From a bacterium (GTDB taxonomy: Bacteria > UBP7 > UBA6624), in contig PBAU01000002.1 of NCBI GenBank assembly GCA_002716355.1, forward strand, positions 64,000 through 95,999: a stretch of DNA of 32,000 nt, in the 5' to 3' direction. Of the stretch, positions 6,697-18,349 are shown piece after piece. The notes beneath the pieces are model-generated. The model had not been told where the DNA came from. It did no database searches and saw only the letters and a program-made list of their open reading frames with translations. The first letter of the stretch is position 1, and every line of letters starts with the position of its first letter. The position numbers and the translations under genes are program-made.

Positions 6697-8199
6697 ATGA
6701 ATCCAAAAAAAGCTTTTTCCAAATTAAAAAAAATATCAGAAGACTCTCATGCAATTAGCGACGTAAGTGCAATTGTGAGCTGGGACCAGGAGGTAAACAT
6801 GCCTCCAAAAGGTTTAGAGAACAGGGGCAGAATGATGTCCTGGCTTGCACAGCAAAGACACAAAAATGCAACTAATCCAGAGATTGGAGAGGCCTTGGAA
6901 ACAACCCGTTCTGGTGACTGGAACGAAAAGGAAAAAGCTTGCTTGAGGGAATGGCAAAGAGGTTGGGACCTTTCAACCAAGATACCGGCTGACTTGGTTC
7001 AAAGAGCAGCACTGGCTTCAGTCAAGGGGCATGAATCATGGAAGTCTGCCAGGGAGAAGAATGATTTTTCCATTTTTAGAGATGATCTAAAAGAGCTTAT
7101 TGACCTCAGCAAAGAACGAGCCGAATGTATTGGTTATACAACTGAATCCTATGATGCGCTTTTGGACATGTACCAAGCTGGCATGAATGTTCAAGGTATT
7201 GATGCATTATTTACAAATTTAAAAAACAAATTAACCCCTTTATTGGAGGAAATTCTTGATTGGCAGGGAGAGATTGAGGATGATCCTGTTGCAGGTCATT
7301 ACTCACAAGAAGAGCAGAAAAAATTCTGTGAGTGGGGTGCAAAGCATATCGGTTTTGATTTTGATGCAGGCAGGATTGACACTGCAGTACATCCATTTTG
7401 CTCTGGTGCTGGACCAGGTGACATAAGGCTTACAACAAGATACAATCTTGAAAATCCTTTTGACTCTTTCTTTGGTTCATTGCATGAAACTGGTCATGGA
7501 CTTTACGAACAGGGCTTACCTTCAGGAAAGGATGAGTATGGAACACCATTGAGTGAATCTGTTTCATTAGGCATTCATGAAAGTCAATCTTTATTCTGGG
7601 AATCAATTGTTGGCCAAAGTCCCGAATTTTGGGAATACGTGCTTCCTTTTTTCAAAGAGCACTTCCCCGGCAGGGCTGATTCGGTCACACATGCACAAAT
7701 CGTCAGGAGGACAAACAAGGTTTCAAGATCACTCATTAGGGTTGAAGCAGACGAGGTTACATATCCGCTTCATGTTATTTTGCGATTCGAAATCGAGAGG
7801 GATATTTTTAGAGGTAATTTATCTGTAGACGATTTGCCTGACGCTTGGAACCAAAAGATGCAAGAGCTTATTGGTGTAACTCCACCCAACAACACTTTGG
7901 GCGTGCTGCAGGATGTGCATTGGTCAATGGGTGGTTTTGGGTACTTCCCAACTTATGCTCTCGGCAGGCTGTATTCAGCTCAATTCACAGAAACACTTTC
8001 CAAGGATGTTCCAAGCTGGAAAGATGATATGGCTAAAGGTGATTGTTCTCCAGCTTTGGAATGGTCACGAAAAAATATTCATTCAAGAGGTTCAATTTAC
8101 AGAACTGAACAATTGATTGAAAAAGTGACAGGCACACCACCAAGTGAAGAGCCATTCTTGAATTATTTAAGAAAGAAATATAAGTCGATTTTTAGTTAG
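6697..8199 (+). CDS. Carboxypeptidase Taq-type metallopeptidase (family M32)
   Basis: HEXXH motif ([13 protein letters not shown]), the HPF motif (AVHPFCSG), HESQS, and [21 protein letters not shown], all typical of M32. 500 aa. Confidence 0.9.
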
Positions 8200-10440: not shown

Positions 10441-11607
10441 TTAAACTAAAAACCAATCTTTTTGTGGCTCTGTTGTGACAATTGGAAGAGGATTGATTAC
10501 TAGGTTGATCTCACTTCGTATGCCCCATTCTGGATAATAAACACCAGGTTCAATCGTTCCTGCCCATCCTGGAAGCAGCGATCTTGTGTCTTTTGCCTCA
10601 TAGCTGTCTAGTTGAGCAGCATCACCATGGGCGCTTGTAAGTCCCAGATTATGGCCTGTCCTATGAATGAACCCCTCTCCAAATCCATGATTTTCAATTA
10701 CATTTCTAACAGCCTGGTCAACCTCATAACCGGCAATCGATCTTTTCTCCAAAAAAGCTCTCTTTATTACCTGAACCCCCGCATCTCTGGCTTCTAAAAC
10801 AGCATAAAAACCCTTGTCGATAACCTTGTCAACTTTTCCTCGTTTTGCCATCCATGTTATATCGGCATATGCAGGTTTGTCAGATTTTTTTGTTGCCCAT
10901 AAATCTATAAGAAGCACAAAATTTTCTCCCAATCTTGCACTTCCCTCTTTTGGTGTTGCGTAATGGGGATCGCCAGCATTTCCATTAACTGCAACTACAG
11001 GTGGATGGTCAGTTGTCATGCCCATTTCTTCAAAACTTTCTAGTATCCAATTTTGAACCATTGATTCATCCAGTTCAAAAGGTTTTGCCTTAGACACTCG
11101 ATCAAAAACACCTTGGACTATTGATGTTAAATTTATTGCTGATTCACAATGGGATTCAATTGTTTTTTCGGACCATAGTAAAAGATGTTCCTGCGAGATG
11201 TTTTCACTACTTTTTAAACTGCAATCCATTGATCTTAGTAGGTCAATCAACCCCCCATCAAGATAAGAGAGATAGGGAATCTTGCCATCTTCACACCATT
11301 CCACATAAATGGTTTTTCCTGCAATCATTGATGTCAATGTTCTTTTCCAATCTTCAAAATTTTGATATTTTCTAATTTGCACATCAGTGAATGCCAGACT
11401 TTTTGATTCAATTCCATTGACAATCATTTCTGCTTTTCCTTTTTTTGGAATCCAGAGCGCCCATCGCCTGCTTAAAAACACATTATCTGGTAAAAATTTT
11501 CTAGCAATTGGATTATGTGAATGGAAATCTGCAACAAACCATCCATCAACTGCATGGCTGGAAAGGTTGTTTTGAATTTCTTTAATCAATAAATCGAGTT
11601 GTTTCAT
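10441..11607 (-). CDS. M24-family metallopeptidase (Xaa-Pro aminopeptidase/dipeptidase-like)
   Basis: Pita-bread-fold metal-ligand motifs (LIDLWA.., HRTGHNLG, GTIEPGVYYPEWGIRSEINLV). 388 aa. Confidence 0.85.
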   Translation of the reverse strand: MKQLDLLIKEIQNNLSSHAVDGWFVADFHSHNPIARKFLPDNVFLSRRWALWIPKKGKAEMIVNGIESKSLAFTDVQIRKYQNFEDWKRTLTSMIAGKTIYVEWCEDGKIPYLSYLDGGLIDLLRSMDCSLKSSENISQEHLLLWSEKTIESHCESAINLTSIVQGVFDRVSKAKPFELDESMVQNWILESFEEMGMTTDHPPVVAVNGNAGDPHYATPKEGSARLGENFVLLIDLWATKKSDKPAYADITWMAKRGKVDKVIDKGFYAVLEARDAGVQVIKRAFLEKRSIAGYEVDQAVRNVIENHGFGEGFIHRTGHNLGLTSAHGDAAQLDSYEAKDTRSLLPGWAGTIEPGVYYPEWGIRSEINLVINPLPIVTTEPQKDWFLV

Positions 11608-11635: not shown

Positions 11636-12436
11636 ATGTTTTTTCTAATGATGTTGTTAATGAAACCATGCCTCGGGCATGATCAGCATTGTGACAAAAG
11701 ATACGACGAGCTTTCTTACCTTGTTACGCATAATGCGATGTCGACATCAGAAGATAGATGGCTTTTCCCCAACCAGGATCGAGGTCTCATTGCTCAGCTG
11801 AACGATGGCGTTAGAGGCTTGTCGTGGGACATCTACGAGCATAATCAGGAGGTTTATCTTTGCCATGGTTATTGCTGGCTTGGAAAAAGGAAATTAATGC
11901 ATGACCTTGTTGAACTCAAAGGTTGGCTAGATGATAACCCCAGAGAGATAGTCTCGATTTTTTTTGAAAGCTATGTCGGGAAGAAGCCGGTTGTCGAGCT
12001 TTTTGAGCAGTCTGGAATGATTAGCTATGTTCACCATCAAGCCCTTGAGCAAGATTGGCCATCCATAATTGATATGATCGACAGCGGAAAAAGGGTTGTT
12101 GTTTTCACAAGTCGGGAAGGCGGTATTGACGACTGGTACCATGATGCCTGGAGGTATGTTTGGGATACAGATTTTTCATACAAAAGCATCGATGACTTTT
12201 CATGCTCAAGGCTCAGGGGCCCAAAAGACCTTTCAGGTCTTTACAGCATAAATCATTTTTTGACAAACCCACTTGCCTCAAAAACACTTGCCTCAAAAGC
12301 AAACCCGTCTGTTTACAAAAGAGCTGAGAGCTGTTGGGTAAAGACTGGGCAAAGGCCCAATTTTATTTTTGTTGATTTTTATTCGGTCGGAAACACCTTG
12401 GAGGCGGTAAGAAAATTAAACTTGTTACATTTTTAA
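11636..12436 (+). CDS. PLC-like phosphodiesterase (PI-PLC X-domain-like protein), probably exported
   Basis: The N-terminal region YDELSYLVTHNAMS....NQDRGLIAQLNDGVRGLSWDIYE...VYLCHG matches bacterial PI-PLC X-domain-containing proteins. Short hydrophobic N-terminus. Confidence 0.7.
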   Translation: MFFLMMLLMKPCLGHDQHCDKRYDELSYLVTHNAMSTSEDRWLFPNQDRGLIAQLNDGVRGLSWDIYEHNQEVYLCHGYCWLGKRKLMHDLVELKGWLDDNPREIVSIFFESYVGKKPVVELFEQSGMISYVHHQALEQDWPSIIDMIDSGKRVVVFTSREGGIDDWYHDAWRYVWDTDFSYKSIDDFSCSRLRGPKDLSGLYSINHFLTNPLASKTLASKANPSVYKRAESCWVKTGQRPNFIFVDFYSVGNTLEAVRKLNLLHF

Positions 12437-12469
12437 AACAAGTTTGAATGCACATAACAAATATACAAT
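12418..12469 (+). promoter_or_regulatory. Candidate operator plus promoter upstream of the PhoU-wHTH gene: AAACTTGTTACA ... ACAAGTTT-N18-TACAAT
   Basis: Perfect 9-bp inverted repeat AAACTTGTT (12418-12426) / AACAAGTTT (12437-12445) with a 10-nt spacer. ACAAGTTT lies exactly 18 nt upstream of the -10-like TACAAT (12464-12469). The same elements and spacing occur upstream of pstS. Confidence 0.45.
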
Positions 12470-13412
12470 TGAGAAGATGATGACAGAGGATCGTACAAAC
12501 AAGGTTCATTTAAACGTTATCAGGTTAGGCAAGCTGGTTGTTTTTGCGTTAAAAAAAGCTCTTAAGGGTAGCACCTTTAACATAGATGCTTTTCTTGCAA
12601 AATGCAGAGCAAGAGAGACTGAAATCAACCTGTTAGAGATGGAAATTGAACAGGATCTCCAGACTTTAATGAGACCAGAGCTGGAAGATAAAGATTGTCG
12701 TCACTTTACAGCGTTGTTGAAAATCAATAATGACCTTGAGAGGATTGGCGATTATGCCATGGCGATAGCTAAATATCTTGTTGATGTTGACATGTCAGAA
12801 ACGGTGAAAATTGAATCCAAATTTAAAAAATTATCAAAAGCATCTATAGAGATGCTTGAAAGATCCGTTAAGGCAATAGAGCTTGAAGATATCAACCTAG
12901 CCAAGCAGGTTATTCGTGATGACGATTATGTTGATAAATTGAACAAGGCAATAATCAAGATTCTTTTAAGCAGTAAAAATCCAGATATGGCTTCGGTTGT
13001 TTCGTTGGTTAATTTGTGTAGAAGATTGGAGAGGACAGCAGATCATGCAACCAACATAGCAGAAGATTTGGTTTTTTGGATAGAGGGTGATGTTTTGAGG
13101 CATCCCACAAAAAAAAGATCCTTTATGTTTAATGAGATTGAAATATATCCAAACAGCAGAGAGATTAAGATTTCAGAAAAGGTCCATCTTTCTAAAAGTG
13201 AATGGGAGATATTCATACACCTTATAGAAAGATCTCCAGACGGTGTTTCTAGAGAGGATCTTATGAAAAATGCTTTAGGCTACGACTCTTCTGTTGAAAC
13301 TCGAACTATCGATCAACACGTGGTTAGATTGCGAAAAAAACTAGGCCACAAAAAAACACTTTTGAAATCTATAGCTGGATTCGGTTACAAAGTGGTTAAT
13401 TCAAAGAATTAA
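12444..13412 (+). CDS. PhoU-domain protein fused to an OmpR/PhoB-type winged-helix DNA-binding domain (no receiver domain)
   Basis: Residues ~15-220 carry two PhoU repeats (LKINNDLERIGDYAMAIAKY; RRLERTADHATNIAEDLVFWIEG). Residues ~231-318 match the Trans_reg_C pattern (LSKSEWEIFIHLIERSPDGVSREDLMKNALGYDSSVETRTIDQHVVRLRKKLG....GFGYKV). The listed start is TTG at 12444. ATG at 12477/12480 (MMTEDR) is at least as likely. Confidence 0.85.
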   Translation: MNAHNKYTIEKMMTEDRTNKVHLNVIRLGKLVVFALKKALKGSTFNIDAFLAKCRARETEINLLEMEIEQDLQTLMRPELEDKDCRHFTALLKINNDLERIGDYAMAIAKYLVDVDMSETVKIESKFKKLSKASIEMLERSVKAIELEDINLAKQVIRDDDYVDKLNKAIIKILLSSKNPDMASVVSLVNLCRRLERTADHATNIAEDLVFWIEGDVLRHPTKKRSFMFNEIEIYPNSREIKISEKVHLSKSEWEIFIHLIERSPDGVSREDLMKNALGYDSSVETRTIDQHVVRLRKKLGHKKTLLKSIAGFGYKVVNSKN

Positions 13413-13415
13413 AAC

Positions 13416-13456
13416 AAATTTGTTACAAGTTTTTAAAAAATCACAAAGAATACTAT
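13416..13456 (+). promoter_or_regulatory. Candidate Pho-box-like operator plus promoter of pstS: AAATTTGTTACAAGTTT-N18-TACTAT
   Basis: The 12-mer AAATTTGTTACA (13416-13427) matches 12418-12429 at 11 of 12 positions. ACAAGTTT (13425-13432) lies 18 nt upstream of the -10-like TACTAT (13451-13456). There is no good -35 hexamer, as expected for an activator-dependent promoter. A strong SD, AGGAGG, lies at 13482-13487. Confidence 0.45.
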
Positions 13457-13500
13457 TTAAGATTTCAACTTAAATCCAAAAAGGAGGATTTTATATAAAA

Positions 13501-14385
13501 ATGAAATTTAAATTTTCAAGCTTTTTTATATTGTTAGTTTTAGTAGTTACCAGTTGTGCAAGGCCGCAGGATTCTGAAGGAAATGCCGCAGGAAGTAGTT
13601 CCTCGGGAAGCGAGCAAAGCATACAGGTGACAGGCTCTGACACCATGGTTAACTTAGGTCAAGCATGGGCTGAAGAATATACAAAAACGAACCCCAACGC
13701 ATATATTGCTGTTGGTGGCGGAGGCTCTGGTGTTGGGATCGCTGCCTTGATGAATGGAACTGCTGATCTCGCAAATTCATCCAGAGCAATTAAGGACAAA
13801 GAGATCTCAAAGGCAAACGAACTTGGCTTCGGTATCAAGGAGTATATTGTTGGTTGGGATGGGCTTGCTGTTGTCGTTCACCCAGATAATCCAGTTAACC
13901 AATTGTCAATTTTGCAAATCGCAGAAATTTTTACTGCCAAAATTACAAACTGGAAAGAGGTTGGTGGTGATGATTTAGAGATTGTTTTGTTGTCACGAGA
14001 GGTAAATAGTGGAACACATGTTTACTTCAAAGAAAATGTCGTTGGATCTTTAGGTAAGGGTACTGAATTCAGCGAAGAGGCGTTATTGATGCCAAGTAGC
14101 CAAGCACTTGCTGATGAGGTAACAAATAATATTGGCGCAATTGGCTATTATGGCATGGGTTATTTGTCACCATCACAAAAGCCAATTGATGTATCTGTTG
14201 ATGGGGTTGTTTTTGTTCCACCAACTATAGAAAATGTTCTTAATAAAACATATCCAATTGCGAGACCCCTACACATGTTTTCAAGAGATAACATTTCTGC
14301 AGCAGCAAAAGCTTATATTGAGTGGATAATGGGAGAGGGGGGCCAGGCTGTTGTTGCAGCACAGGATTTTGTCCCCTTGAGCTGA
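13501..14385 (+). CDS. pstS: Phosphate ABC transporter substrate-binding lipoprotein
   Basis: Lipobox (LVVTSC). PstS-family motifs GSDTMVNLGQAWAEEY, GGGGSGVGIAALMNGTADLANSSRAIKDKE, YPIARPLHMF. Confidence 0.92.
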   Translation: MKFKFSSFFILLVLVVTSCARPQDSEGNAAGSSSSGSEQSIQVTGSDTMVNLGQAWAEEYTKTNPNAYIAVGGGGSGVGIAALMNGTADLANSSRAIKDKEISKANELGFGIKEYIVGWDGLAVVVHPDNPVNQLSILQIAEIFTAKITNWKEVGGDDLEIVLLSREVNSGTHVYFKENVVGSLGKGTEFSEEALLMPSSQALADEVTNNIGAIGYYGMGYLSPSQKPIDVSVDGVVFVPPTIENVLNKTYPIARPLHMFSRDNISAAAKAYIEWIMGEGGQAVVAAQDFVPLS

Positions 14386-14416
14386 CTTTAGCCTGATTTG
14401 ATTAAGATTTGAACTT

Positions 14417-15328
14417 GTGAAAAATATAAAATTAAAAAAGCATAAAACAGAGACTTTCAAACAGCCTCTGTCTGAAAAAATAACAGAGGCATGCTTGCGT
14501 TTTGCAGCATGGCTATGCATCTTTTTTATTGCCTGCATTCTTTATTTTTTAGTAAAAGAAAGTGGCGGGGTTTTTTTTAGTGACATTTTTACTATTACAG
14601 GTAAATTTTGGAGACCAATCAGTGAACCTCCAGATTTTGGTGTTTGGGTATTGCTTGCAGGCAGTTTGGCAGTAACGTTAACAGCATCTCTAATCGCAGT
14701 GCCCCTAGGGATTTGTGCAGCTATTTTTATCGGCGAACTGCTGCCACAGAAATTTAGAGAATTTTTGAAAGTTATAGTTGAATTTCTAGCAGCAATACCA
14801 AGTGTTGTTATTGGGTTCTTGGGCATGATTATTCTTGCACCATACATCAAGGAAGCTTTTGACCTAAAAACAGGCTTAACGGCTTTTTCGGCAGCATTGA
14901 TGCTTGCATGGATGGCAATGCCGACAATAGTCAGTTTAACTGAGGATGCTCTCAGAAGTGTACCTGATACTTTAAGAGATGGGGCTCTTGCTCTTGGTGC
15001 TACCAAATGGCAAATGATCACAAGGGTGCTTTTGCCAACAGCAAAACCAGGCATACTTGCTGCAGCAATGCTTGGTGTTGGAAGGGTGATAGGTGAAACA
15101 ATGGCGGTTTTAATGATTAGTGGTAATTCTGCCAGGATACCAAGTAGCATCATGGAGCCAGTCAGAACTCTCACTGCAACAATTGCTGCAGAAATGGGAG
15201 AAACAGTCAAGGGCGATGAGCATTATCAAGCCCTTTTTGGCTTGGGTGTTGTTTTATTTATTATCACATTGCTAATTAATACTGCAGCAGATAGGTTTAT
15301 TAATAAAAAATACACAGAAGAATCATGA
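14417..15328 (+). CDS. pstC: Phosphate ABC transporter permease PstC
   Basis: Multi-TM protein with the PstC-type EAA loop (LTEDALRSVPDTLRDGALALGATKWQMITRVLLPTAKPGI). GTG start. Position after pstS. Confidence 0.92.
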   Translation: MKNIKLKKHKTETFKQPLSEKITEACLRFAAWLCIFFIACILYFLVKESGGVFFSDIFTITGKFWRPISEPPDFGVWVLLAGSLAVTLTASLIAVPLGICAAIFIGELLPQKFREFLKVIVEFLAAIPSVVIGFLGMIILAPYIKEAFDLKTGLTAFSAALMLAWMAMPTIVSLTEDALRSVPDTLRDGALALGATKWQMITRVLLPTAKPGILAAAMLGVGRVIGETMAVLMISGNSARIPSSIMEPVRTLTATIAAEMGETVKGDEHYQALFGLGVVLFIITLLINTAADRFINKKYTEES

Positions 15329-16185
15329 ACTTTAAAAAACAAAATCCAATCAACCAGCAAAAAAGGGCCACTTTTGGCTTGGGGCTTATAACAGCCATTG
15401 TGGTTATTCCGGTTTTATTGATACTAGGTGTTGTTTTTGTTAAGGGTATTTCAGTTATAGATTGGAACTTCCTGACCACTGAACCCACCAATGGTTTAAG
15501 AGAGGGCGGGGTTTTCCCGGCCATAGTTGGAACATTGATCCTGGTTGTTGGGGCCGTGGTTTGGAGTGTCCCTTTTGGTGTGGCTACTGCAATTTATCTT
15601 GTTGAATATTCTCCAAGAAGCCGAGCAGCTAACTTGGTTAGGTTAGCAATCTTAAATTTAGCAGGAGTCCCCAGTGTTGTTTACGGGTTGTTTGGCTTGG
15701 GGGTGTTTGTCATAGCTTTAAAATTTGGCGCAAGCATTTTAGCGGGAACTTTAACCCTTGCTCTGATGGGTTTGCCAGTAATAGTCACATCAACTGCAGA
15801 AGCGTTAAAAGCTGTTCCTGATAGATTCAGAGAAGCAAGCTTGGCATTGGGTGCTAGCAAATGGCAAACAACTAGGCATGTTGTTCTTCCAAACTCCATA
15901 CAGGGAATTTTGACCGGAATAATTTTAGAAATTAGTCGTGCTGGCGGAGAGACTGCACCAATTTTGTTCACTGTAGCAGCTTTTTATTTACCAAGATTGC
16001 CACAAAGTATCTTTGATCAGGTCATGGCGCTTCCAATGCATCTTTTTGCAATCTCAACACAGGTGCCTAACATAGGCTTGGATGTGAGATATGCAGTTGC
16101 CTTAACGTTGTTGTTTTTAGTTTTAGGCATCAATGCAGTTGCAATTTCCATAAGAGCAAAAATTAGGAAAAACAGAATATGGTAA
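15325..16185 (+). CDS. pstA: Phosphate ABC transporter permease PstA
   Basis: Multi-TM protein with EAA loop (STAEALKAVPDRFREASLALGASKWQTTRHVVLPNSIQGI). 4-nt start/stop overlap with pstC. Confidence 0.92.
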   Translation: MNFKKQNPINQQKRATFGLGLITAIVVIPVLLILGVVFVKGISVIDWNFLTTEPTNGLREGGVFPAIVGTLILVVGAVVWSVPFGVATAIYLVEYSPRSRAANLVRLAILNLAGVPSVVYGLFGLGVFVIALKFGASILAGTLTLALMGLPVIVTSTAEALKAVPDRFREASLALGASKWQTTRHVVLPNSIQGILTGIILEISRAGGETAPILFTVAAFYLPRLPQSIFDQVMALPMHLFAISTQVPNIGLDVRYAVALTLLFLVLGINAVAISIRAKIRKNRIW

Positions 16186-16928
16186 AAGAAATCATTATTA
16201 AATCTTTGTCGGTTTCATATGGAAACAAACAGGCAATAAGAAATTTGTCTTTATCGGTTGAAAAAAATGAAATATTAGGAATCATTGGTCCTACTACTTC
16301 AGGAAAAACAACCTTACTTACAGTTTTAAACAGAATGATCGACACAATACCGTCAGTTGCGATTTCCGGCAATGTTTCCATGGGTGATATTGATGTTTTG
16401 ACAACACCAAACATCCATAGTCTCAGGAGGTCTGTTGGGATGATTTTTGCCCTTCCGGTCGCTTTGCCCATGACTATTAGGGAAAATGTTGAATATGGCC
16501 CAAAGATGGCTGGAGAGGCAAAAGGAGAGTTGGAGACAAGGGTTAAAGAAAGTCTTGTGCAGGCTGGATTATGGGATGAGGTGCACGACAGGTTGGACAC
16601 CCCGGCATTAAAGCTTTCAGGCGGCCAGCAACAAAGGCTTTGCATCGCAAGGGCTTTAGCATTAAAGCCAAAGGTTTTATTGCTTGATGAGCCTTGTTCG
16701 GGGCTTGATCCAATCTCAACATCCAGAATAGAGGATACACTGAGTCAATTAAAAAATGACATGACTATCATCTTGGTCACAAACAACCCCCATCAAGCTG
16801 CTCGTGTTGCTCATCGAACAGCTTTTATGCTTAAGGGCGAGCTTATCGAGCTTGCTGACACAGACACACTGTTCACAAATCCTGCAGACAATAGAACAAA
16901 AGAATACATTGAGGGTAAATTTGGATAA
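16179..16928 (+). CDS. pstB: Phosphate ABC transporter ATP-binding protein, divergent paralogue (Q-loop and H-loop substituted)
   Basis: PstB-like throughout: Walker A GPTTSGKT, canonical signature LSGGQQQRLCIARAL, Walker B LLLDEP, C-terminal EYIEGKFG. The Q-loop Gln is Ala (VGMIFALP, codon 16449-16451). The switch His is Asn (LVTNNPHQAAR, codon 16782-16784). Confidence 0.9.
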   Translation: MVKEIIIKSLSVSYGNKQAIRNLSLSVEKNEILGIIGPTTSGKTTLLTVLNRMIDTIPSVAISGNVSMGDIDVLTTPNIHSLRRSVGMIFALPVALPMTIRENVEYGPKMAGEAKGELETRVKESLVQAGLWDEVHDRLDTPALKLSGGQQQRLCIARALALKPKVLLLDEPCSGLDPISTSRIEDTLSQLKNDMTIILVTNNPHQAARVAHRTAFMLKGELIELADTDTLFTNPADNRTKEYIEGKFG

Positions 16929-17692
16929 TGGCAAAAACTCTAATTAAATCTGAAAAATTCAATTTGTGGTATGGTGACTTTCAAGCTTTAATTGATATAG
17001 ATCTCGACATACCAGAAAATCAAGTTACAGCTGTTGTGGGTCCTTCAGGATGCGGAAAAAGCACTTTTGTTCGTTGTATCAACAGGCTAAACGATCAAAT
17101 AAACACAGTTAGCACCAAGGGTTCTATTTTTATTGATGGGACAGACATTTACCAATATACGGCTGATGAGGTTGTTGGGCTTAGGCGATCTGTCGGGATG
17201 GTTTTTCAGAGACCCAACCCCTTTCCGCTTTCTGTTTTTGAAAACGTTGCTTTTGGCTTAAAGACAAACCCCATGGTTCCTGATCATCAAACCATAAAAA
17301 AGGAAGTCAATAAAGCGCTGCAAGCGGTAGGTTTGCTTGAGGACCTAGACGGTAACCTTGCGAGACCAGGAACCAGTCTTTCCCTGGAACAGCAGCAAAG
17401 ATTATGTATTGCAAGATGCCTGCCAACAAGGCCCAAAATATTGCTTATGGACGAACCTTGTTCAGCATTGGATCCAAGCGATACCGATAAGGTAGAGGAG
17501 CTCATAAGGGAATTAAGGAAAGACTATACCGTTGTGATAGTGACCCACAACCTACAACAAGCTGGCAGAATTTCTGATCAATCTGTATTATTCCATTTGG
17601 GCAAAATTATTGAAGCAGCACCAACAGCAGATTTCTTCCAGAACCCGAAAGAAAAAAGAACAAGAGACTTTATTACAGGTCGTTATGGTTAG
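16928..17692 (+). CDS. pstB: Phosphate ABC transporter ATP-binding protein, canonical catalytic motifs but degenerate signature motif
   Basis: Walker A GPSGCGKST, Q-loop VGMVFQRPNPFP, Walker B LLMDEP, H-loop VIVTHNLQQAGR, C-terminal DFITGRYG. The ABC signature reads LSLEQQQRL instead of LSGGQQQRL (17378-17392). Confidence 0.93.
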   Translation: MAKTLIKSEKFNLWYGDFQALIDIDLDIPENQVTAVVGPSGCGKSTFVRCINRLNDQINTVSTKGSIFIDGTDIYQYTADEVVGLRRSVGMVFQRPNPFPLSVFENVAFGLKTNPMVPDHQTIKKEVNKALQAVGLLEDLDGNLARPGTSLSLEQQQRLCIARCLPTRPKILLMDEPCSALDPSDTDKVEELIRELRKDYTVVIVTHNLQQAGRISDQSVLFHLGKIIEAAPTADFFQNPKEKRTRDFITGRYG

Positions 17693-17701
17693 GAGTTAAA
17701 T

Positions 17702-18349
17702 ATGACTAAAAGATTAACAAAACTTATTGATAAAATCAAAGTAAAAACCTTGGCAATGGCTCAAGATGTTTGCAAATCAATGGATGATGCAATGGAGGCA
17801 ATTTTAAATTCTAGCGATGATAAATATCAAGCAATGAAACAACGAGAAGATAATATTGATTCGCTAGAAGTTGAGATCGAAGAATCCATACTTGGCACCA
17901 TTGCTGTCCATCAACCTGTTGCAGATGATTTAAGAATTCTTGCAGCAATGTTGAAGATTACAAATGACTTAGAAAGAATTGGTGATTATGCGATCAAAAT
18001 TGCTCAAAGGGGCAAGGATATTGACGCCAACTTGATCAAGAGCATCAAAGCTCCTTTGTCTAAATTGGGAACATCTTCAATCCAGATGATTAAAGATGCA
18101 GTACAGGCTTTAGACGCAGGAGATGCAGATTTAGCCCAGAAGGTTAGAGATGCTGATGACCAGGTGGATGAGCTTAACAAATCCCTCATAAAGGAATTAT
18201 CCAAAATCGATGATGATGACTTTGAGTCCTTGGTCGCACTGGTTTCAATATCCAGAAGATTCGAAAGAGCTGCTGATCATGCAACAAACATAGCAGAAGA
18301 TGTTTTGTTCTGGCTTGAAGGCAGGATATTCAGACACGGTGAAACCTAA
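17702..18349 (+). CDS. phoU: Phosphate signalling complex protein PhoU (stand-alone)
   Basis: 215 aa with two PhoU repeats (LKITNDLERIGDYAIKIAQR; RRFERAADHATNIAEDVLFWLEG). Position immediately after pstB. Confidence 0.92.
   Translation: MTKRLTKLIDKIKVKTLAMAQDVCKSMDDAMEAILNSSDDKYQAMKQREDNIDSLEVEIEESILGTIAVHQPVADDLRILAAMLKITNDLERIGDYAIKIAQRGKDIDANLIKSIKAPLSKLGTSSIQMIKDAVQALDAGDADLAQKVRDADDQVDELNKSLIKELSKIDDDDFESLVALVSISRRFERAADHATNIAEDVLFWLEGRIFRHGET

Follow-up and report, generated by a model that had tools for sequence, protein, structure and literature searches.

How does the state of a phosphate transporter reach the promoter of its own operon where no PhoR/PhoB pair is encoded beside it? 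The route of the phosphate signal from PstSCAB through PhoU to transcription is still debated, and model bacteria use PhoR and PhoB. The question is raised by a stretch of 32,000 nucleotides (nt) from a bacterium of the lineage UBP7 (UBA6624; assembly GCA_002716355.1, contig PBAU01000002.1, positions 64,000-95,999; hereafter the window), in which a gene for a protein that joins PhoU to a winged helix-turn-helix (wHTH) domain stands immediately upstream of pstS-pstC-pstA-pstB-pstB-phoU. According to our analysis, a pair of 11-bp direct repeats upstream of pstS is probably an operator, and the best reading of the locus, on which our judgment is evenly balanced, is that this operator is a Pho box bound by the fusion protein acting as a one-component regulator.

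The initial annotation had described a bipartite motif, a 12-mer and an 8-mer, shared by the regions upstream of the fusion gene (site 1) and of pstS (site 2). The positions and spacings that it gave are correct (Table 1): the 12-mers share 11 of 12 positions, and since the start of the 12-mer precedes that of the 8-mer by 20 nt at site 1 and by 9 nt at site 2, the displacement is 11 bp. The combination of 12-mer and 8-mer had to be abandoned as a unit, because its left part at site 1 consists of the last codons of the PI-PLC-X-like gene and becomes AAATTCGT in the 96-97% relatives, and what is conserved everywhere is a series of ACAA-type direct repeats. For these comparisons we used syntenic relatives of the locus, all of them uncultured marine metagenome bins: L014 (99% protein identity to the window), L016, L006 and L009 (97%), L015 (96%) and L017 (94%), and a more distant clade at 73-74% protein identity (L001 = L011, L012, L010 and L003-5).

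At pstS, the direct repeats read ACAAATTT-gtt-ACAAGTTT (13414-13432) with an 11-bp period. They are the sole match without mismatch to the pattern ACAANTTT-N3-ACAANTTT in the window, and the pstS site is the top-scoring match to this pattern in each orthologous locus. The repeats are kept in the 73-74% clade as ACAAAATTtttACAACTTT, with the units ACAAAATT-ttt-ACAACTTT. Locus L011 (10938-10978) has three 11-bp units (ACAAAATTttt, ACAACTTTttt and ACAACTTTtta), whereas the other loci have two; the third unit is an exact 11-bp insertion, with which both the helical phase and the distance between the proximal unit and the promoter are retained. In the window clade the site can also be read as a near-palindrome, AAATTTGT-T-ACAAGTTT. 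We rejected the palindrome as the conserved unit: the form AAAYTTGT-T-ACAAGTTT is limited to the window clade, and the 73-74% clade lacks TTGT on the plus strand, whereas its ACAA repeats persist. The direct-repeat reading is preferred because only the ACAA direct units survive in all clades and because the change in copy number amounts to one whole unit.

The blocks upstream of pstS are 79-88% identical between clades, compared with 40-43% at the third codon positions of the fusion gene, and the 5' region of pstS is therefore under strong constraint. From the box onward the identity between clades is 79-83%, and 18 of the 19 positions of TTACAAnTTTTTAAAAAAT do not vary in the alignment across clades. 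A PHO box is made up of two direct repeat units of 11 nt, in each of which 7 positions are conserved and 4 less so, and the consensus varies with the species (PMC4415409). The pstS element agrees with this description in having at least two 11-nt direct repeat units, as site 1 does with one mismatch, and in lying directly 5' of pstSCABB-phoU. It does not share the E. coli consensus CTGTCAT, its core being ACAAnTTT; this does not exclude it from the class, the consensus being species-specific. As a cis-element alone, it is thus a fresh member of the well-known Pho-box class, and its phasing and conservation make it, with considerable though not full confidence, a real operator for a domain of the OmpR/PhoB type.

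The fusion protein carries such a domain. Pfam assigns to it PF01895 (3.7e-30, in two stretches) and PF00486 (3.5e-16; 59.5 bits against a cut-off of 26.2), and TIGR02135 reaches 122 bits, below its equivalog cut-off of 130. The AlphaFold model (mean predicted local distance difference test 86) comprises a six-helix PhoU domain (residues 2-203), a flexible linker modelled at low confidence (some 12 residues, approximately 204-215) and a winged helix (216-306), in which the modelled C-terminus has a four-strand sheet, three helices and a wing. The N-terminus resembles P. aeruginosa PhoU (4q25) in Foldseek, with a template modelling (TM) score of 0.87, and the acidic motifs conserved in PhoU, DLERIGD and ERxADHATNIAED, are invariant in the fusion. 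At the C-terminus, two PhoB models rank first among the NCBIfam regulator models (2e-15 and 2e-12). The top Foldseek match of the winged helix is the PhoB effector domain on pho-box DNA (1gxp; TM 0.80, root-mean-square deviation 1.8 Å) and the matches include ToxR (8b4d); a sequence search of the PDB with the fusion did not single out PhoB. No Response_reg match was obtained, the N-terminus being PhoU. Since the fusion has no receiver domain and no cognate kinase was found at the locus, it is not a response regulator.

This architecture is rare. A word-indexed search returned only five proteins with both PhoU and wHTH domains, and HMMER over 1.84 billion protein representatives returned three full-length clusters, namely this clade, P0241 (36%; its contig, L020, is too short to contribute to the comparison) and P0031 (31%). 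In all three fusion clades for which genomic context is available, the fusion gene adjoins the pst operon or lies inside it. One of them is GC-rich (L008, 58% G+C); its fusion is 30% identical, and the gene order there is pstSCAB followed, after pstB, by the fusion. Downstream of the fusion in L008, in convergent orientation, lies a gene for a CckA-like hybrid kinase. Two reports present PhoU as a bridge between PstSCAB and PhoR (PMC13577022, PMC9239213), and a third reports dimerisation of PhoU homologues (PMC11705898).

The nearest outgroup, L021-L023 (GCA_014384545.1, 53% G+C; PstS 64% and urocanase 73% identical to the window), shows what stands in the place of the fusion. It shares the neighbourhood of deacetylase, pstSCABB-phoU, M24 peptidase and urocanase genes (e.g., L023 9316-16039), in which neither the PI-PLC-like gene nor the fusion was found. 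Next to its phoU are a PhoR-like histidine kinase (TIGR02966, 4.5e-25) and a response regulator of the OmpR/PhoB family. The DNA-binding domain of this regulator is 36% identical to that of the fusion, and the recognition-helix motif TR.(I/V)DQH..RLRK.LG is common to both. No kinase or response regulator was found in the window-clade DNA examined, which amounts to about 32 kb plus the flanks from relatives, a small part of each genome.

Based on these results, we infer a mechanism in which each unit of the pstS element is bound by one winged-helix domain of the OmpR/PhoB type, the domains lying one after the other on the same face of the DNA helix. The element, with two units (three in one relative) around the core ACAAnTTT, would overlap the -35 position or lie just 5' of it, in a promoter that has no recognisable -35. 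The protein encoded immediately upstream, in which PhoU is followed by the linker and a PhoB-like effector domain and no receiver is present, would be the binder. This fusion is the likeliest one because of its adjacency, its PhoB-like domain and its replacement of the two-component pair in the syntenic arrangement; as the most economical candidate, it is about as credible as all other candidates taken together. As a one-component phosphate regulator, it would read the state of PstSCAB through its PhoU part, probably via PstB, like free PhoU. Under low phosphate the DNA-binding domains would be freed, would occupy the repeats and would activate pstSCABB-phoU; activation under phosphate limitation is the favoured sign of regulation, due to the lack of a -35 and the upstream position of the box. 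The regulator gene itself would have the conserved TACAAT as its -10 and give a leaderless mRNA whose first nucleotide lies at or beside ATG 12477; through the repeat copy in the place of its -35 (12427-12445) it would also be autoregulated, in the window clade only. The whole proposal, in which the fusion has replaced PhoR/PhoB, reads the state of the Pst transporter, binds the ACAAnTTT repeats and switches on pstSCAB, is more tentative, and we would not yet call it probable.

Table 1. Positions of the features discussed in the text, in window coordinates.
Feature	Position (strand)	Sequence or content	Remarks
PI-PLC-X-like gene	11636-12436 (+)		Open reading frame directly 5' of the fusion gene; its 3' end contains the left half of site 1
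12-mer and 8-mer of site 1 (initial annotation)	12418-12429 and 12438-12445	AAACTTGTTACA and ACAAGTTT	8-mer followed by 18 nt, TACAAT, 7 nt and ATG 12477
Inverted repeat at site 1	12418-12445	AAACTTGTT / AACAAGTTT	Perfect 9 bp (12418-12426 / 12437-12445), 10 nt between the arms
Site 1, direct-repeat form	12427-12445 (+)	ACATTTTT-aaa-ACAAGTTT	Copy of the direct-repeat pattern with 1 mismatch
Probable -10 of the regulator gene	12464-12469 (+)	TACAAT	Predicted leaderless promoter
PhoU-wHTH fusion gene	12477-13412 (+)	311 amino acids	PhoU bundle, linker and OmpR/PhoB winged helix
Putative pstS operator	13414-13435 (+)	ACAAATTTgtt + ACAAGTTTtta	11-bp units; cores 13414-13421 and 13425-13432
Site 2 (initial annotation)	13416-13432	AAATTTGTTACAAGTTT	Followed by 18 nt and TACTAT 13451-13456
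T/A tract	13433-13441 (+)	TTAAAAAAT	Invariant; right after the proximal repeat; one block with TTACAAnTTT
Candidate pstS -10 hexamers	13451-13463 (+)	TACTAT 13451-13456; TATTTA 13454-13459; TAAGAT 13458-13463	
pstS-pstC-pstA-pstB-pstB-phoU operon	13501-18349 (+)		Presumed target; open reading frames and Pfam; synteny kept in all related loci

The promoter and the start codon of the regulator gene agree with this picture. The initial annotation had preferred ATG 12477 over TTG 12444, and we came to the same choice: relatives do not conserve the N-terminal extension that a start at TTG 12444 would give, and an in-frame TGA immediately precedes the ATG in three lineages (L003, L010 and L012), and therefore ATG 12477 is the start of the fusion gene. 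In all four lineages TACAAT is found unchanged between unconserved flanks, 7-8 nt before the ATG; together with the TAnnnT peak of the window this supports the leaderless mRNA that had been proposed, and a leaderless regulator transcript is suggested as the simplest reading. The peak concerns TAnnnT hexamers, which end 7-8 nt before the start codons of 10 of the 30 window genes, compared with 1.6 expected (e.g., at 6697, 10441-11607 on the minus strand, 12477, 14417 and 18378). Shine-Dalgarno sequences are absent from most window genes. The peak suggests widespread leaderless transcription; TAnnnT is, however, also found ahead of GTG-started genes inside operons, and may thus have to do with translation initiation.

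A number of observations weigh against the proposed regulator, several of them at site 1. Site 1 is absent from the 73-74% clade, in which the position of the proximal box reads ACGTAAAC, ACGTAACC, ACATAACC or GCAACGAA, and over the 45 nt 5' of TACAAT the identity between clades is at the random level (27-36%). Among the 94-99% relatives, where the site is kept as ACAAGTTT, ACAATTTT or ACAAGTT variants, the gap from the box to TACAAT is 18, 17 or 16 nt. The first unit overlaps the final codons and the TAA stop (12434-12436) of the PI-PLC-X-like gene, and is thus constrained by coding sequence. Shuffled sequences gave an ungapped match as good as the best one between the two upstream regions in 686 of 2000 cases, and the ungapped local similarity of other gene pairs in the window is just as high; the 12-mer at up to 2 mismatches is not enriched in the window, the DNA of which has 39% G+C, and ACAAGTTT occurs 5 times compared with 2.1 expected, a count reached in 8 of 100 shuffles. 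Conservation in orthologous loci, one of the checks proposed in the initial annotation, holds for pstS, where the Pho-box-like repeats occur in all clades with an 11-bp period and a gain of one 11-bp unit; site 1 is kept only in relatives of at least 94% identity. The equal 18-nt geometry at both sites is not upheld, due to the drift of this gap and to the absence of TACTAT from the 73-74% clade.

These observations fit an explanation in which the pstS element alone is functional and site 1 is a chance product of AT-richness and coding constraint, with neither a shared motif nor autoregulation. It may well be right, without being the more probable outcome. What speaks against it is that both sites contain units ACA(A/T)nTTT 11 bp apart, and that precisely two window sites match ACAANTTT-N3-ACAANTTT at up to 1 mismatch, the only one besides pstS being site 1 (0.11 expected; 1 of 100 shuffles; all others need 3 mismatches). 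Given the pattern derived from pstS, the chance of such a match within an 80-nt promoter region is 0.0002-0.004; the pattern was set after inspection of the sites, and these figures are therefore optimistic. The only extra match in the related loci (L011 4676, 1 mismatch) is intragenic in an M32 peptidase gene, is not conserved in the window and was set aside as chance. Within the window clade, moreover, the ACAA core survives: the lone substitution in the site-1 box falls on a degenerate position, whereas the neighbouring spacer differs by several substitutions and indels. The most that site 1 can be is an autoregulatory copy restricted to this lineage, and that it is functional has, judged from these comparisons, slightly less than an even chance.

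A second explanation accepts the pstS repeats as a genuine Pho box and assigns them to a conventional PhoB encoded elsewhere, in which case the fusion would serve some other function or act on different targets. Repeats with an 11-bp period are common to the OmpR/PhoB family in general (PMC4415409), a PhoR/PhoB-like pair is encoded in the sister lineage, and the inspected DNA covers about 32 kb of this genome and flanks from relatives. The promoter of the fusion has no box of its own in the 73-74% clade, and a canonical phoU is present separately at the end of the operon (17702-18349), so that the fusion is an extra paralogue. The outgroup boxes upstream of pstS are E. coli-like, CTGTCTC-aaca-CCGTCTC, followed by two further 11-bp units, and L023 carries CTGTCTCaacaCCGTCTC (compare the E. 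coli consensus CTGTCAT); they are unlike ACAAnTTT, which tells against the proposed regulator. The same difference, however, also argues against a conventional PhoB as the binder here, as do the replacement of the two-component pair by the fusion in the syntenic neighbourhood, the closeness of its DNA-binding domain to PhoB and its constant place beside or within the pst operon. We regard a PhoB encoded elsewhere as rather unlikely.

The conserved block upstream of pstS could also be a core promoter, an UP-element or a 5' untranslated region, with an 11-bp periodicity that reflects the phasing of A/T tracts. The entire 88-nt intergenic region is conserved (77% mean column identity), so that the boxes are not singled out, the block TTTTTAAAAAAT is invariant, and the lineage is uncultured and without an established promoter consensus. 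The candidate -10 hexamers at pstS differ in conservation: TACTAT is specific to the window clade, being TATTAT in L017 and CCCTAT or CACTAC in the 73-74% clade, TATTTA is conserved save for TACTTA in L012, and TAnGAT is kept in all clades. They sit 18, 21 and 25 nt 3' of the proximal unit, and the position of this unit is accordingly uncertain, from -31 to -45, depending on the choice of the -10; this too counts against the proposed mechanism. On the other hand, the distance between successive ACAA cores is exactly 11 bp, the unit gained in L011 is a precise 11-bp repeat, and no -35-like hexamer exists at usable spacing in the pstS promoter. Furthermore, the GC-rich fusion clade has AACAATT repeats 22 bp apart 5' of pstS (in L008, at 1989-2019, CTAACAATT occurs twice at this distance with TCACATTC midway). 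We therefore consider a core promoter or leader an improbable explanation of the repeats. A conserved hairpin in the pstS 5' region is unsupported (-0.56 kcal/mol, no covariation).

That the palindromes are RNA terminator hairpins, of the PI-PLC-like gene at site 1 and of the regulator gene at site 2, can be practically dismissed: the inverted repeat at site 1 is indeed 100% complementary, spans the upstream stop codon and folds at -8.8 kcal/mol (z = -2), and site 2 follows the regulator stop codon and precedes a T run, but a U tract is missing at site 1, the folding energy of site 2 is only -2.3 kcal/mol (z = +0.1), a terminator scan of the window called neither place, and the hairpins are not kept in relatives, the one at site 1 dropping to 7 of 9 pairs in L006, L009, L015 and L016 and not being conserved in other clades. 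The possibility that the inverted repeat acts only as a terminator, raised in the initial annotation, was thus rejected.

The wider locus consists of a minus-strand M24 peptidase gene, the PI-PLC-X-like gene, the fusion gene, the pst operon and a deacetylase-like gene; Rfam and tRNA scans of it gave no matches. Orthologues of the PI-PLC-X-like protein have precomputed matches to PF26146 (PI-PLC_X) and PF26178, and the Pfam scan of the window protein itself gave no family at E <= 0.001. The protein is a candidate phosphorus-scavenging enzyme because its gene sits directly upstream of the phosphate locus. Approximately 50 nt of the region upstream of this gene, present in other clades, are deleted in the window clade, and one AAACAAATT conserved there in other clades has no counterpart in the window. 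L017 (4132-5901) is a mosaic relative to window positions 11636-13412: its fusion is 94% and its PstS 90% identical, whereas its PI-PLC-like protein is only 69.5% identical and resembles that of the 73-74% clade, which implies a recombination breakpoint inside or near this gene.

Within the operon, pstS has a strong Shine-Dalgarno sequence (AAGGAGG, 13481-13487). The two tandem pstB paralogues (249 and 254 amino acids; 16179-17692) are kept as a pair in relatives and in the outgroup. A further repeat of the locus is a pair identical at 14 of 15 positions, TTAAGATTTCAACTT in the pstS 5' region (13457-13471) and TTAAGATTTGAACTT at 14402-14416, the latter ending exactly at the GTG start of pstC. 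The element has only these two matches without mismatch in the window, the rest needing 3 mismatches, and the pstC copy is kept in the 73-74% clade before a TTG start. Its possible roles are those of an internal promoter, a processing site or a translation signal.

A receiver-less regulator that joins PhoU to a PhoB-type domain, in a place where the sister lineage has PhoBR, is a new variant, and we found no literature on the PhoU-wHTH fusion architecture. If the proposed mechanism is true, the pathway is reduced to one protein and one DNA site, the input of PhoU, whether phosphate, metal or the state of PstB, becomes directly addressable by DNA-binding assays, and the locus offers a natural minimal system for asking what PhoU senses. 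It would also mean that genome-streamlined marine bacteria are able to drop a two-component system for a key nutrient response. Should another protein bind the repeats, the locus would be left with a lineage-specific Pho box of the ordinary kind.

Compared with known systems, the closest likeness is to the E. coli Pho box with its two 11-nt units and the core CTGTCAT. Both have 11-bp tandem direct repeats 5' of pstS without a good -35, and the protein associated with them has a PhoB-like winged helix, of which the best structural match is PhoB on pho-box DNA. The differences are that the core is ACAAnTTT, that TGT lies on the other strand with respect to transcription, and that the presumed binder has neither a receiver nor a partner kinase in the locus. 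The PhoP boxes of B. subtilis are TT(A/T/C)ACA direct repeats approximately 11 bp apart on the coding strand. The pstS element likewise has ACA hexamers on the coding strand in 11-bp phase, with TTTACA (73-74% clade) or GTTACA (window) in the proximal unit; it differs in having 2-3 units, not four or more, and in belonging to an unrelated organism with an unrelated regulator, and the match is short and lies in AT-rich DNA.

The proposed logic, in which a transport complex retains a transcription factor or lets it go depending on how actively it transports, is that of MalK-MalT and PtsG-Mlc, as a mechanistic analogy without homology in which the interaction of the fusion with PstB is a predicted one. 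The fusion is like PhoU itself in its N-terminal 205 residues, which match PhoU and keep both acidic motifs, and differs from it in the attached DNA-binding domain and in its coexistence with the separate phoU at the end of the operon. ToxR, CadC and the SARP regulators have an N-terminal winged helix, and their sensor is periplasmic or a BTAD/NB-ARC module. As in these proteins, a domain of the OmpR/PhoB type is joined in the fusion to a sensory module other than a receiver, so that no phosphorelay would be needed, whereas here the winged helix is C-terminal to a cytoplasmic PhoU domain.

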